A stretch of 52,327 bases of DNA from Girardia tigrina (Eukaryota), in NCBI GenBank assembly GCA_001938485.1, contig MQRK01219748.1:1-52327 (forward strand), given 5' to 3'. Shown piece by piece: positions 19,066-26,178 of the stretch (positions are counted from its first letter, which is position 1; every line of letters starts with the position of its first letter). The position numbers and the translations under genes were made by a program. The notes below the pieces were generated by a model that had not been told where the DNA came from, ran no database searches, and worked only from the letters and a program-made list of their open reading frames with translations.

Positions 19066-19688
19066 TTTTATTTTTTTCACCCATACGTGTTACTTTCAAA
19101 AAGTAAAAGAAATGCATAGAAAGTTATGGTTACATTATTTTACTTAGCTATTTGATTCTCTACAATTGCTTAACCACTGATAATTTTGATTATACAGATA
19201 TCGTTCGTTCAGTTAATTTTTCGTTTTTTAACAAACTCGCTTATACAAAATTTTCATAAAAAGTTTTTTATCCATCATAAATAAATAATATAGACAAATC
19301 ACAAAATATAAAGTTTTAACATCATAGTATCATAATGTTATTAAAGATAATAAAAATGGATAAATAAATAAGTATATATATATACAAAACATACATTGTT
19401 ATCTTACACTACCGTCATCAAGTTCATGCAGACTCCTTGTGGCTCGAATCGATATAAGCGTCGTAAGTAGTCCGACAGGCTCTTGATCACCAAACAAGCA
19501 ATCGATGCTGAATCCAAATGAAATGTTTTAAATTGAACAGTGGTATGAACCTGTTTCGTTTTACAATCAAAATCTAAGCTAATAAATGAAAGATCAAAAC
19601 ATTTAAATAAAGAGTAATTATAATCTCTTGATGTTGATTGAGAGACATGATCTCTTATAATAGATTCAGTTTCTTTGTATAAGATTTT

Positions 19689-20060
19689 TCAATCAGGTAT
19701 GGATACCAAGTTTCCACTTTTTAAATCTAAAGAAACACCTTCCAATTGTTGCAAAACATCCATGCCAAGCAATAATGATTCTGGGCAACTTTTTGAAATT
19801 AATACGTTTGTTATAATATTCTTGCCACCAATTTTTATTGATGATTGTACAGTTCCTTCAATCGAAAGATAATGACCTGTAACTGATTGTAACCTTTCAC
19901 ACAAGGTGCTAGATTTAATTTTTCTGATGCCAGAAGCATCTTTTCATCAACAATTGTGACTGCTGAACCAGTATCAACTAAAGGTGTAATATATCTATCA
20001 TTTAATAAAACAGTTATTGTAAATCTTTTACCGAATTTAGTTCTTACAGCAAAAACATAA
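19689..20060 (-). pseudogene. pro: Retropepsin aspartic protease (element 2), one frameshift
   Basis: FTITVLLNDRYITPLVDTGSAVTIVD..LQSVTGH..ESLLLGMDVL. Confidence 0.9.
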
Positions 20061-20479
20061 TTACTTGGTAAACCCCATTTATTTCTTACTTCAATTTCTC
20101 TTTTTTGTTTTTCCTCTGCATTTAAAATTTCAAGATTTGGATCGATAGGTTTCATTTCTGTAAGTTGTAAGAATAGATAGTAATTCGGTAACGGTCCAAA
20201 ACTTGTAATATTGAAAACTTGTAACCTGGATTTAACATTTCTTGATTCTTTATCATTTGTAGTTGATTCTCATAATCTTTCCACTCGCTTTTAGATATTG
20301 CTGGTGCCAATAAATTACTATTACTTACAGTTTCATTTCCAGTTTCACTTTTTCTTCCATCAATTGTTACACTTGGATCACTGTTGGAAATATCTGAGAC
20401 AGATTCAAATTGTACTTTTTTATTTCCTTTTTTAAACTTTTTTACGACGTTTATTAATTTCCATTTCTGATTTTAATGT

Positions 20480-22345
20480 ATTTATTTCTTTATGATGATG
20501 GTGAATTATAAAAAATTTTGCTATCATAGGAATGCATCCGATTATTAATTTCCATGAAAATCCCAAAATTGTATATAATCTATGTTGATAAAATTTGAGA
20601 AATAACAACTTTGGATATCGTAAAAATTACATATATTCCGATTAAACCAGCACAAGCTTGACCACAAAATATAAATTTTCCCTATATTCTTTTCATCGTA
20701 TTCATAGTGACTCTTTGATAATGATCTATACTCAAAAAATTATCATTGTTTACTTTTCCCACTCCGTAAGGTAAAACTGTATCAATGATTTCATTCATTA
20801 CTCTTTCTTTTTTAGAAGGAAATAAGAGATTTCGTCTTGAATCTTCAATTTCTTCTGGTGAATAAATACCAATCGTTGACATCTGATCTAAAGACGTAAA
20901 ATTTATTAAATATTCTAATTTTGTTAAANNNNNNNNNNNNNNNNNNNNNNNNNNNNNNNNNNNNNNNNNNNNNNNNNNNNNNNNNNNTGTTAATCGATAT
21001 AAAGGTGCTGTTATCTTATCACATCGTAATTTTCTAGGTATTGTTCCATTTTCCACTAGAATTCGTGTTATAGGTTCTACAAATCTTAATTCACCTTTAT
21101 AACTAACTGGAAGTTCATTTGTGCACTCATTATGTTTTATTATTTGAACTGATATTTCTTTGCATTTATAACTATACAATGCTTCGCCCATAATTCGTCC
21201 ATATACACCTTTTTCAGTGACTAATATTGGAGCGACTAGATTAGGATTTGTTACTACTAAAGCGATTCGATTTTGTAATATTTCTCGGTTCAATTTACAA
21301 TCATTTAATATAACCTCACGATATAAATTTTCCACTGTCGATTGATGAAAATGAAATGCAAAATCAATTTTATTGCTCAAATAATGGAATAATTTTATAT
21401 CAGCATTATGTACAACTGTAGCATCGGGTATCTTTCTTGAGAAACATATAGGCCCTTGTAGTTTGTTGAATACATTGATTTTCCACAACGGTTTTCTTTT
21501 TCTTTTCGCATAAATCTCATTCCATCTGCTGAAAGAGATGACATTAAAACTGTTGCTAAATTCCTTTTTTGAACTGGCACTGTTTTTCGAGCTTGATGCT
21601 TCTTCGGTTTTAACATATCTGGCTTTTCTTGTATTTGAATACCTTGAGCTTCAATAAATTCTGCTGATTTAAGAAATGCCAAATTACAATCTTTATAATT
21701 AACTGACTATAATAATACAGATTCTCCTGTTTGACAGCTTGTAGTTCGATAATTACAAAATGGATGAGACTGTAATTTCCCTGTAACATCATCAAAAATT
21801 CCATCGAATTCTCTAAATTCTGTTTGATATTTCTCGGATATCATGATTTTATCTACTATTTTATTTCCCAATTTTACAGATTCTCCTTTACATTCTCCAT
21901 CCGGATCCATTACTCCTTTTCGAAATACAGATTCTCCTGTTATATATCCGACTTTGGCTGTCAATGTTAAATTGGAATCAATTTTTAGTTGTTTCGTTTG
22001 GAATGCTGCTTCACAATTTTCTGGTAAGATATCAACTGGTCTCGGTATAGCATCTATTTTTATAAGAGAAGAGTGACTCCATCTTCCACAATGAAAAACA
22101 TAAGTTGCACGTTTTACTATACACTCTCGTACTTTTGCTCTTCTAAATCCGGATTCTTGATACAAATGATATAAAACATTTTTCTCTTCTTTAATTTGAA
22201 ATGGATAAGCTTCAGCACATTCCACTACATCCATTAATGAATATATTTTTCCTATTTCTGTTTGTGAACAATCATACGCTACTAAAGACACTGTTGGAGA
22301 TACACATAAGAATAAAATCATAATTAATGATAATCACCACATTCT
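20480..22345 (-). pseudogene. env: Chuvirus-like envelope fusion glycoprotein of element 2 (frameshifted; small N gap)
   Basis: Signal MILFLCVSPTVS then LVAYDC..YSLMDVVEC..CIVK..FHCGRWSHSS..C..GECKGE..NDCKLNREIL..GEALYSYKC..CTNELPV..PITRIL..C..GIYSPEEI..R..LFP..VMNEI; TM GQACAGLIGIYVIFTI. This is the Cys/motif pattern I recognise from Chuviridae G proteins. Confidence 0.85.
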
Positions 22346-23554: not shown

Positions 23555-24455
23555 TCAGAAACACTGAACTTTACTTTCAACTTTACTATTATTTTCATTT
23601 CGTTTCAATTTATTTTTACTTTTGTCTTTTGATGTTGATAGCATCTGTACACTTGGATCAGTATTATTAAATCTTGCGGACATTCTATCAAATTGTGTTC
23701 TTAATTCATGAAAATCTCTTTTCATAGAATCGTTGGAACCTTCATCCTCAGATGACAAACAATTTATATCGGATTGATTATCTTTGAATTTAATTTTCTT
23801 CTTCAAAATTGATGGTGATGGTATTTGCGTATTTGATNTACATGATCTGGCAACATGACCATACTTTTTACATTTTTCACACTGTATTTGACCTTCACTA
23901 TTAAGTTTGGCTCTCTGTGGAGAAGGAGTTAATGATCTATTTCTAGTCATATCTGTTCTGCATACATTGGCTAGATGACCTCTTTTCCACATTTATAACA
24001 TGTTTTAATAGGTGAATTTCGATTATTATTTGTATTATTTTTGAACCAACATTGACTGCTAACATGACCAATTTTGTTACAGTTGAGGTTTTCTTGTGTA
24101 ATTATTTGACTCTCTAGTGTCGTTAAATCTCATTGATCTTGAAAAATTCGGACTTCTCGAATAATTTGGCTTTGATTATTGTTATTTCTACCACCAAAAT
24201 ATTGATTTTGTCTTGGATTTTCATTTTGTGGTGTATATCTTTGCATTTTTGGAGATGCATAACTTTGAAAATCATCGTCTGTATCACTGTTGTTTGAATA
24301 TGTCTTCGGTTTAGGTCTTTCTATCGGTTTNAATTCAGTTACACATACTGGTCGAATAGGAGCTGCAGTAGTATTCATTTCTATTTTCATAGCCTTTTTT
24401 ACCAGATCATCATCATTTGTATAGTCCACAAAACAAAGTGCTCTTTTTATGTTAT
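23555..24455 (-). pseudogene. gag: Gag C-terminal half with CCHC zinc knuckles (element 2)
   Basis: DDLVKKAMKIE..C.KCGK/RGHLANVC..CEKCKKYGHVARSC. Closely similar to 33122-33820. Confidence 0.9.
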
Positions 24456-24459
24456 ATTA

Positions 24460-26178
24460 TATTGTTCATTTCAATAGTATCAATAGACGTATTCACAAAC
24501 GGATATTCGATGCGAGTTTATCAGATCACAGTTTATTAATTTTCAAACTATAAATCTTCTAAACGAACGATAACCGTTAAACCCTTAAAGTCAAGTGAAC
24601 TTTATTCTCCTATACAGGATACTTATGTTAAGTTTATAAAATATAAATATTAAAAAATTAGATATTTGTTTTAATTAAATAGGTACAATAAAAATTATTT
24701 ACCTTTTTATTATATTAAATATAAATTATATATAAATAAATGAATTTAAATAANNNNNNNNNNNNNNNNNNNNNNNNNNNNNNNNNNNNNNNNNNNNNNN
24801 NNNGTATTTTTATAAAAAAGATAAACAGATTATTATTAAAGGTAAATAGAAAGAATTTAAAATAAAGGAAGTAGTATAAAAAGAGAAAGATTTTATAAAG
24901 AAAGCGCCCTTAATTATATTTTGAAGACAAGAATTAATTATAAAAAGAAGACCAGAATTATTTTTAAAAGGTTAAGCAAGTTCAAGAAAAGAAGGCTTAA
25001 GTGCGTAGTTACCTACAACAATTTTAAAAGGAACCTACAACAATTTCAAAAGAAGTTCTATATTGAGTGTCGTCAAATTGCAATAATATCAGCGGCTACT
25101 CAAAAGTTACGATATATAAAAGCTGATTATACCAAAGAAATTAGAAGCCAGTAAAACAACGATTGATTTGAGATTGAAACCCAAATACTGAGATTGAAAG
25201 TACGGAATCACATATAATTTATATATTTGATTAATATATTTTTATATATACAAAATCATAATTGGAGGTANGCAATTTGTTTCCTCCTCTACCCAAAATA
25301 CAAAATCATAAATAGGTTAAGTTATTTTAAAAGAATTTTAACATTGTAAGTTATTTTTTAATTAATAATAATTAAGTCTTATTGTTTTGATTTTCTTTTT
25401 AACTTAAATATCACCTAGATATCCCAACACTTAGTTCGACTTCAACTTCAAGAAAAAGAAATAAAAATAAAGAATTTAAATAAATTTACTCTACACGGAA
25501 TCTTCTTTAAAATTTGTTGCAGGAAATTATTGGTGTGATTATGACTGAATTCGTTGTTGTTTATATACTAGTTTTTTCTAACCTTGAAAATTGATCAAAT
25601 AAAACAAAGACTAAAATATTTTTAATTTTCGATTCCAAATTTTGCTAAACTAAATATTATTTTGTTTGAAATTAATAATTTTATCAAAAGAATTATTTTA
25701 AATTTTTTTCTACATAAAATTTTATCAAAAGTGTTCATATGTATTTTTCGAAACCATAACAAAATCATGGTATTCATAATTAATTTTGTTTCAATTTTTC
25801 CAGTTCTTCCAAGGGTCTTTGGAAGATTTTGCCATGTGTTTTCCGGCTCTACTCGAGGCTGTGCCTAATCTGCTATTGATGAACTTCACCTGGCTCGTTT
25901 TTTCGGTCTCTATTGCTTTCGGGTGGGTTTTTACGGACTTCTCGTAAATTCTATTTAATTACTTCATTTCTAGCTTGTGGCCAGTCTGACAGTTACCTTT
26001 ATGAACGTAAATGGGTAATGGGCTTCTTAGTATCGTTCGCCGTTCTACACGCTCCGTGGCCTATTTACACTCAACGGTTATAGTCGAGCTAGACTATAGC
26101 CCACTCATCCTCCTTTCAAAGGTTCCTGGCGTGTGGGGTGGTGACGTTATTGGGCAGCTCGGGATCTCTATCGTAACA
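24460..26178 (-). mobile_element. 5' LTR of element 2 (starts TGTTACGA on the minus strand), interrupted by a nested solo LTR
   Basis: 24480-24625 and 25434-25770 are homologous to 34660-35160, the LTR abutting the PBS of the sibling copy. The terminus TCGTAACA at 26178 interrupts an RT fragment. Confidence 0.65.
24626..25429. mobile_element. ~800-bp solo LTR TGTT...AACA, 4-bp TSD CTTA
   Basis: CTTA|TGTTAAG...ATATCCCAACA|CTTA; homologous to 12667-13445. Confidence 0.8.

Follow-up and report, generated by a model that had tools for sequence, protein, structure and literature searches.

The window, a 52,327-nt stretch of Girardia tigrina DNA (contig MQRK01219748.1), contains a single copy, decayed and with internal deletions, of a Ty3/gypsy family that is present in high copy number. 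Very probably the source family is of the GAG-ENV-POL type with an HSV/gB-type env and encodes its products as one polyprotein, and the copy in the window comes from an RT-less, non-autonomous subfamily. The domain order, the in-frame natural junctions, the LTRs with a 4-bp target duplication and the purifying selection on env were all observed directly. Judged by its sequence, the element is a further member of a known planarian GAG-ENV-POL group and not a new lineage.

Structure of the copy in the window

All parts of the element are read on the minus strand. The LTR had been described as starting at 26178, but that position belongs to another family, namely to the LTR-like start of a repeat that opens with TGT (25764..26178, minus strand) and within which the element under study is inserted. 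With 41 genome matches this repeat is a separate family; it is followed by the gypsy family's LTR in only two of six cut loci, both with an identical flank, and it is absent from the gypsy family's loci L001-L024. The family LTR begins at 25762, and its first 219 nt (25544..25762) match the LTR of the sister copy L020 at 91.8% identity. An AT-rich insert with an N gap, foreign to the gypsy family and given no strand (24657..25543), splits the LTR, and the second LTR piece (24457..24656) is fused to mid-gag at a deletion junction. This deletion, at about 24458, took the 3' part of the LTR, the primer site, the leader and the part of gag that codes for capsid; the missing stretch is about 770 nt as measured in sister copy L008. 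Only pieces of the 5' LTR are retained, and no 3' LTR was found for the window copy.

The gag remnant (23565..24456) is frameshifted and carries the CCHC-type zinc knuckles described on this strand, three in number (zf-CCHC, E 2.6e-9 in sister copy L013). It is followed by two putative ubiquitin-like modules (23060..23271 and 22580..22800), an internal signal-peptide-like hydrophobic stretch (22280..22342), a broken ectodomain of a Monjiviricetes/chuvirus-type (gB-type) fusion glycoprotein (20682..22279), a membrane region (20500..20681), a tail or linker from env to the protease (20040..20499) and an aspartic protease (19690..20039). The succession of tail and DTG protease was described correctly, with the DTG at 19975-19967 and a Pfam aspartyl protease match in sister copy L011 (gag-asp_proteas, E 2e-6). 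The point stops and frameshifts to which the breaks had been ascribed are present, and there is one N gap besides, at 20929-20987 within the ectodomain. RT, RNase H and integrase were removed at about 19666, where the protease is joined to the C-terminal stub of the RT-less subfamily, a diverged polyprotein end (19404..19666, stop at 19406-19404) that lacks RT, RNase H, integrase, the FN3 domains and the terminal membrane helix. The copy is thus not a whole element, since it has lost capsid and primer site on one side and RT, RNase H, integrase and the 3' LTR on the other. A Brix ORF is a neighbour of the element in the window.

The family in the genome

A genome search with the window element gave at least 153 matches (150 of 3070 candidates scored), and the 150 matches listed, the window itself excepted, showed 82-96% identity; their number and identity place the family far beyond chance. 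The copies are about 92% identical to one another. Sister copy L020 has two LTRs of about 670 nt with TG...CA ends and a 4-bp target duplication, and L008 likewise has paired LTRs and a 4-bp target duplication. In both, a primer site starting with TGG lies 9-10 nt past the 5' LTR and a G-rich tract stands ahead of the 3' LTR. Contig C225110 covers about 10.5 kb from the start of the 5' LTR to the stop, a 1.3-kb N run included, and the family size is about 11 kb with LTRs of 0.67 kb. Among the RNA runs, the run shares were 0.24 or less.

In the sister copies, Pfam analysis revealed the pol order PR-RT-RH-IN, which is absent from the window copy, and the best PDB matches of the RT were Ty3 RT (E 4e-66). 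Retrotrans_gag was found in L009 under the Pfam cutoff (E 8.5e-4), and the spacer of about 190 aa between PR and RT had no Pfam match. After the integrase, the sister copies encode two fibronectin-III (FN3) domains and then a terminal membrane helix; a weak search with this tail against longer proteins gave no match, and none of the proteins compared here carried it. The TG...CA LTRs, the 4-bp duplication, the primer site, the purine tract and the Pol order are those of Ty3/gypsy elements. A BEL/Pao identity was rejected, as no BEL/Pao-specific Pfam families (BEL-type gag, A17 protease, RT) were found in the sister copies and the RT is nearest to Ty3 among solved structures.

A probable single Gag-Env-Pro-Pol reading frame

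None of the 20 fetched loci, a small part of the family sampled from a fragmented and gapped assembly, held an intact copy, and the whole-length frame is a deduction from overlapping natural pieces and homologues. The expected single ORF was thus seen as natural pieces that are open at the junctions. These N-free frames comprise one of 224 aa in L009 (start, capsid, gagN), a 282-aa frame in L013 (gagN, knuckles, gagC), a 795-aa frame in L001 with its N run removed (gagC, UBL, signal, env) and an 833-aa frame in L004 (signal, env, TM, tail, protease); the passage from the C-terminal end of env to the protease is also open in L003 (363 aa) and L011. Further on, the protease and RT matches of contig C9770 share one stop-free frame of 735 aa, RNase H and integrase are joined in a 507-aa frame in L004, and a 474-aa frame in L023 runs from the integrase end through both FN3 domains and the TM to the stop. 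Open frames of 2120 and 1613 aa consisted mostly of N runs and were discounted as near-whole polyproteins, and an 863-aa frame in L007 was left uncounted as it contains N runs.

Fourteen database proteins were picked by length or rank from the 150 homologue matches listed, and 10 of them carry G and then protease in one chain; five of the 14 also have RT-RNase H and four a gag feature ahead of G (Pfam). Protein P0015 (2146 aa) combines knuckle, G, PR, RT, RH and IN in one chain, and the long homologues show the same pre-env signal pattern. Because the junctions are in frame in the sister copies and unrelated proteins have the same parts in a single chain, the proposal of one Gag-(UBL)-Env-Pro-Pol polyprotein, made in the preliminary description, holds.

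Most Metaviridae do not make Gag, Env and Pol at 1:1:1, a ratio that one chain would force. The single DNA frame might instead give separate products, with splicing or an internal start yielding Env or an Env-less Gag-Pol and the polyprotein being seldom made, and the two hydrophobic segments past the ectodomain leave room for another topology. We consider this quite unlikely, as the copies have no conserved stop or frameshift in common at any of the junctions and frame continuity, needless for separate products, extends to very distant homologues.

The 150 homologue matches listed are mostly stand-alone G proteins of 600-700 aa, and chuvirus-like G EVEs are common (cf. Dezordi et al., PMC7642597), as would suit an EVE that happened to insert into a gypsy element. 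This explanation was ruled out as exceedingly improbable. The env occupies the same place and frame across many copies, with no sign of the separate nested insertion considered beforehand, and it is under purifying selection. The layout recurs in single-chain proteins of unrelated genomes and in a second family inside the window, 27-35% identical, in which env, TM, tail and protease form one frame followed by RT. Moreover, gag lay directly upstream of the protease in none of 20 protease-selected loci, although most copies might have had this arrangement under the alternative raised earlier; upstream, 10 loci reach the env TM or ectodomain, 9 break off within the tail where the contig ends or has a gap, and one is rearranged.

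The glycoprotein and its neighbouring segments

The ectodomain matched PF24664 with E 2.2e-21 and E 3.4e-40, which bears out its description as chuvirus-like. Its likeness to viral fusogens extends to this family, whereas a sequence comparison of env with the PDB gave nothing credible and matched no solved fusogen. The predicted internal hydrophobic signal was likewise recovered, with a hydropathy of 2.34 in L001 and L004, and ends at A-Y-D-C. Between copies, the pN/pS of the ectodomain was 0.20-0.22, and it was 0.09 for variants present in at least three copies versus 0.57 for private ones, which shows that env is under purifying selection.

The best PDB matches of putative ubiquitin-like module 2 were all UHRF1 UBL (E 0.017), but module 1 had no PDB match and neither had a Pfam match. 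The placement of module 1 relies on an atlas lead and on an hhalign comparison in which it faintly resembled module 2 (probability 35%); the atlas leads to ubiquitin-like folds were 0.76-0.78. A single-sequence fold of the gag-to-signal stretch (pLDDT 36.7) and a fold of module 2 (pLDDT 51.5, no Foldseek match) were uninformative. The two modules that had been described between gag and env are therefore weakly supported, the second better than the first.

Past the ectodomain a single TM helix had been described. A hydrophobic region is indeed present, but in L004 and L003 it comprises two segments and not clearly one. With both of them spanning the membrane, Pol would lie in the lumen, and a flavivirus-like topology therefore needs one of them to be membrane-proximal or re-entrant; with this proviso, such a topology is a reasonable inference from the sequence.

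Proposed topology and life cycle

The polyprotein would consist of capsid, three CCHC knuckles, possible UBLs, an internal signal, a class III-type fusion ectodomain, a membrane segment, a tail, protease, RT, RNase H, integrase, two FN3 domains and a terminal membrane helix. Gag would be synthesised in the cytosol, the internal signal would direct the ectodomain into the ER, where signal peptidase would free its N-terminus, and the stop-transfer segment would return the chain to the cytosol. Protease, RT and integrase would stay attached to the Env tail until released by the element's own protease, so that Gag and Pol would meet on the Env membrane. The outcome could be an enveloped particle, its passage from cell to cell (e.g., from the soma into stem cells or the germ line) and reintegration. 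The RT-less form would make Gag, Env and protease and be copied in trans by full-length elements.

The same polyprotein could also serve intracellular movement, with Env acting as a membrane anchor or assembly platform, from which particles would bud into the ER or into vesicles, and having no role in entry. The one-chain design ties Pol to the membrane whether or not fusion occurs, and the ectodomain has only two N-glycosylation sequons. However, the ectodomain is complete, shares eight domain I-II cysteines with Smed_errantivirus_1, is under strong purifying selection and is retained even by the RT-less subfamily, and we regard a role without entry as rather unlikely.

An extension of the enveloped-particle reading, speculative and probably not correct in full, would have a triple anchor (signal stub, Env segment and the C-terminal helix after the FN3 domains) tether Pol to the budding membrane at both ends. 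The FN3 pair would be a captured adhesion- or receptor-like particle module. The RT-less subfamily, with Gag, Env and protease retained under selection and RT-RH-IN-FN3-TM lost, would be a satellite of the defective-interfering or the Gag/Env-boosting kind; it would offset the forced 1:1:1 stoichiometry and move between planarian cells in the company of full-length elements. If the topology is true, a retroelement assembles like a flavivirus, by one chain threaded through the ER; the RT-less form may then tune the Gag:Env:Pol ratio, and the arrangement would bear on how such elements reach flatworm stem or germ cells.

Relationship to known elements

The env genes of errantiviruses and retroviruses are positioned 3' of pol, as is env in the BEL/Pao elements with a chuvirus-like G (Anakin). 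The text of Chary and Hayashi (PMC13524379) describes GAG-ENV-POL errantiviruses of gB type in Platyhelminthes, Nematoda and Bryozoa, states that GAG-ENV-POL elements are not monophyletic, and includes Smed_errantivirus_1 and _2 of Schmidtea mediterranea, Ty3/gypsy elements of this order with an HSV/gB-type (C1a) env. By hand count, 92 of 156 residues (about 59%) are identical between the window env and Smed_errantivirus_1 over 21719-22186. This value is close to the 63.7% given there for Smed_1 against Smed_2 and far exceeds the 32-38% of these two against Smed_3-6. Domain I-II is alignable with both without gaps and, by eye, 8/8 of its cysteines are in common with Smed_errantivirus_1, consistent with the flatworm C1a pattern. 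The ORF order and the high copy number are also shared. The paper, which includes intact copies only, gives 45 for Smed_errantivirus_1 and 215 for Smed_errantivirus_2, in contrast to 0 of the 20 loci fetched for the window family, whose copies are about 92% identical. A single-frame fusion, UBLs, an FN3-TM tail after the integrase and an RT-less subfamily are not stated for Smed_1/2 in that text, figures excepted.

Burro/GYPSM1 elements of planarians are giant gypsy elements with one polyprotein, according to the text of Arkhipova and Yushenova (PMC6431247). Their env, which matches mononegavirus fusion glycoproteins, lies in frame between gag and protease, and they have a Gag with three CCHC knuckles and a Ubi2/SUMO-like domain before env. 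The window family resembles them in the knuckles, in the in-frame env ahead of the protease and, weakly, in a ubiquitin-like domain. Burro is, however, >30 kb, with an ORF of 4,873-5,140 aa and MATH, BIR, BCL2, ankyrin and Smc domains (PMC6431247), whereas the window family spans about 10.5 kb between the start of the LTR and the stop, and none of these accessory domains gave a Pfam match at E 0.1 in the gag-to-env stretches of L001 and L019. Burro further has a dUTPase-like domain between PR and RT, at the place of the spacer of about 190 aa that had no Pfam match in the window family. Membership in Burro was rejected on both size and accessory domains.

The BEL/Pao elements named Anakin (Dezordi et al., PMC7642597; also PMC12440569, PMC13524379) carry a chuvirus G and have the glycoprotein family in common with the window family, but they are not Ty3/gypsy. 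Non-canonical nematode metaviruses (Sacco et al. 2022, as cited in PMC13524379), like the window family, carry an RNA-virus-type env ahead of pol, in a different host phylum.

The undescribed lineage suggested in the preliminary description is not upheld, since an env between gag and pol has been published for Burro, there in frame (PMC6431247), and for flatworm, nematode and bryozoan errantiviruses (PMC13524379), and the env is close to that of Smed_errantivirus_1/2. Weak literature searches, with paper figures and Repbase excluded, found neither the FN3-FN3-TM tail nor the RT-less, env-keeping subfamily in print. A polyprotein with env in its middle is thus unusual yet published, and the family adds a compact version of about 11 kb without the Burro cargo, purifying selection on env shown directly, the FN3-FN3-TM tail after the integrase and a subfamily that has been amplified without RT but with its env retained.

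Anatomy of the element and its family

In a three-frame translation of the minus strand, a gag remnant containing three knuckles of CCHC type comes first, and a low-complexity linker and a hydrophobic stretch terminating in A-Y-D-C come next. Then follow a cysteine-rich ectodomain, a second hydrophobic region, a tail and finally a protease with a DTG motif. As proposed in the preliminary description, the adjoining segments have no spacers between them and a chuvirus-like glycoprotein lies between Gag and protease, the ectodomain being Monjiviricetes_fusion (PF24664) in Pfam (E-values 2.2e-21 and 3.4e-40). 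The G+C content of the window is low. A count by eye gave about 18 stops or frameshifts in this copy, which also has one N gap. The LTR start had been placed at 26178; the family LTR begins at 25762 instead. The 415 nt at 26178-25764 are part of another repeat with 41 matches in the genome and a different continuation at four of the six loci cut, and this repeat itself interrupts an RT fragment. Owing to a deletion at ~24458, this copy has neither the end of the LTR nor the primer site, the leader or the capsid-coding part of gag; at ~19666, past the protease, it turns into a stub related to the polyprotein C-terminus. A search for its 3' LTR found none.

The genome (1.43 Gb, 255,254 contigs) holds at least 153 matches to the N-part of env (150 scored of 3070 candidates). 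Twenty family loci, picked from these matches for long frames or long contigs, were fetched; they match the window copy at ~92%. In loci L020 and L008 the LTRs are paired, ~670-690 nt long and bounded by TG...CA; both loci also show a 4-bp target duplication, a TGG resembling a primer site, and a purine tract. Five of the 20 (L003, L004, L006, L011, L019) diverge from the window sequence past the protease, and the four with sequence there continue with RT, RNase H and integrase. Among solved structures, Ty3 is the nearest relative of the family RT. A second copy of the family 5' end, at 33100-35153 of the window (minus strand), retains the complete LTR, the primer site and the part of gag that codes for capsid, and ends after the knuckles. 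The env of L011 is interrupted by a 1249-nt insertion (3041-4289) with an 8-bp target duplication and short inverted ends; the insert includes part of a 14-3-3 sequence (E 9e-36) and is probably a DNA transposon that has captured host sequence.

A probable single polyprotein

None of the 20 fetched loci is intact, and two very long open frames in env-match loci were discarded as N-run artefacts. Every junction is, however, covered by N-free natural frames in different copies: start and capsid in L009, knuckles to linker in L013, gagC through the signal into env in L001 (795 aa), signal, env, membrane region and tail into protease in L004 (833 aa), env end to protease in L003 and L011, protease and RT in C9770, a contig of the same genome (735 aa), RT into RNase H in overlapping pieces from L003/L006, RNase H-integrase in L004, and integrase end to stop in L023. 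The positions of the breaks differ from copy to copy, which gives no sign of a programmed stop or shift. The first 20 protease matches with room upstream were also selected by protease only. The env tail lies upstream in all 20, as far as sequence extends; env itself is reached in ten, one locus is rearranged, and gag is joined straight to protease in none of the 20. Together with the open junctions, this supports the single Gag-Env-Pro-Pol chain suggested earlier.

Post-integrase tail and RT-less subfamily

Full-length copies continue for ~450 aa beyond the integrase, in frame, with two stretches matching fibronectin type III (25.7 bits against a cutoff of 25) and a hydrophobic helix close to the end (L023 2706-4127 and L022 3694-4452, minus strand). 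This tail has at least 116 genome matches (109 scored of 2108 candidates), and it may already be in published figures or Repbase. Past the protease, RT follows in 12 of the 20 protease-selected loci and an LTR piece in one; the other seven (L031, L032, L035, L038, L040, L044, L049) share a protease-to-stub junction with the window copy, L016 and L020. This RT-less subfamily was amplified with gag, env and protease kept and one common junction, and its stub is without the terminal helix. L020, with its two LTRs and its target duplication, shows that copying took place in the RT-less state.

Pairwise pN/pS of the ectodomain was 0.20 among full-length copies (36/36 pairs), 0.21 among RT-less copies (10/28 pairs with enough overlap) and 0.22 between the two groups (45/72 pairs); it was 0.09 for variants in at least three copies versus 0.57 for private variants. 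These low values indicate that env was needed by the elements that gave rise to the copies.

Comparison with described elements

The env of Smed_errantivirus_1, a Schmidtea mediterranea element (PMC13524379), aligns gap-free with window 21719-22186; a hand count gave 92/156 identities, and the eight cysteines of domains I-II are all common to both. This likeness, with the low G+C, makes a planarian the probable host. The element is a GAG-ENV-POL gB-type Ty3/gypsy element near Smed_errantivirus_1/2, a known type, and not the undescribed lineage first envisaged; the earlier reading otherwise largely holds, its anatomy being real. The element resembles a compact Burro, a planarian giant gypsy element (PMC6431247), in its working, yet is not a Burro. 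The points of note would be its FN3-TM tail, the subfamily that keeps env but has no RT, and the proposed topology.

Of the two ubiquitin-like modules described earlier, neither has a Pfam match. Module 2 weakly matches the UHRF1 UBL (E 0.017), while no structure-database match was found for module 1; atlas leads were below 0.8 and predicted folds poor. The weak candidates gain plausibility from Burro, which has a Ubi2/SUMO-like domain at the matching position (PMC6431247).

Proposed topology

Order, frame, LTR anatomy and selection are established; the topology draws on how signal peptides and viral polyproteins generally behave. Gag would be cytosolic, translocation would begin at the internal signal to give a luminal ectodomain, and the chain would then go back to the cytosol, with protease-RT-integrase held on the Env tail until cleavage. 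The family plainly transposed, so Pol must reach the cytosol and the net membrane crossings must be odd. Two hydrophobic segments lie downstream of the ectodomain, and they are the weak point of this topology.

Homologues and other features of the window

A HMMER search with a natural env gave 1296 matches at E 0.001; among the best 150, long proteins rank top and most of the rest consist of G on its own, 600-700 aa in length (~25% identity). G is followed by protease in 10 of 14 scanned homologues, five of which also have RT-RNase H, and P0015 (2146 aa) is a single knuckle-G-PR-RT-RH-IN chain. In the long homologues, both a hydrophobic stretch and a motif of the form A/G-Y/F-D-C precede G. 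P0006 (HBK71150.1), a 2627-aa G-PR-RT-RH-IN polyprotein labelled Flavobacteriaceae MAG, most likely reflects contamination by a eukaryotic retroelement. Two to four aspartic-protease-like domains per chain occur in P0002, P0003, P0005, P0007 and P0012, one of those in P0005 after the integrase, and P0004 has a weak Bcl-2 match ahead of G, like Burro. A second, divergent env family with an identical domain order, 27-35% identical to the element in sequence, lies at ~6130-9850 of the window (plus strand); its env C-half, tail and protease share one frame with point stops, RT and RNase H come next, and its linker has a proline-rich stretch.

The window also contains an uninterrupted Brix-domain (IMP4-like) frame (2719-3396, plus strand) with a 141-nt inverted repeat directly upstream (2313-2602), pieces of RT or RNase H from other gypsy families (9961-10641 and 26179-26877, minus; 38951-39400, plus), two protein kinase fragments (29818-30279 and 49050-49463, minus) and a long inverted repeat enclosing a MULE transposase fragment (50156-51837). 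Near-identical tandem duplications flanking N gaps (27035-27781, 39270-40913) are likely assembly artefacts. A separate dispersed repeat is present in three copies (13446-13688, 17061-17303, 28427-28671).
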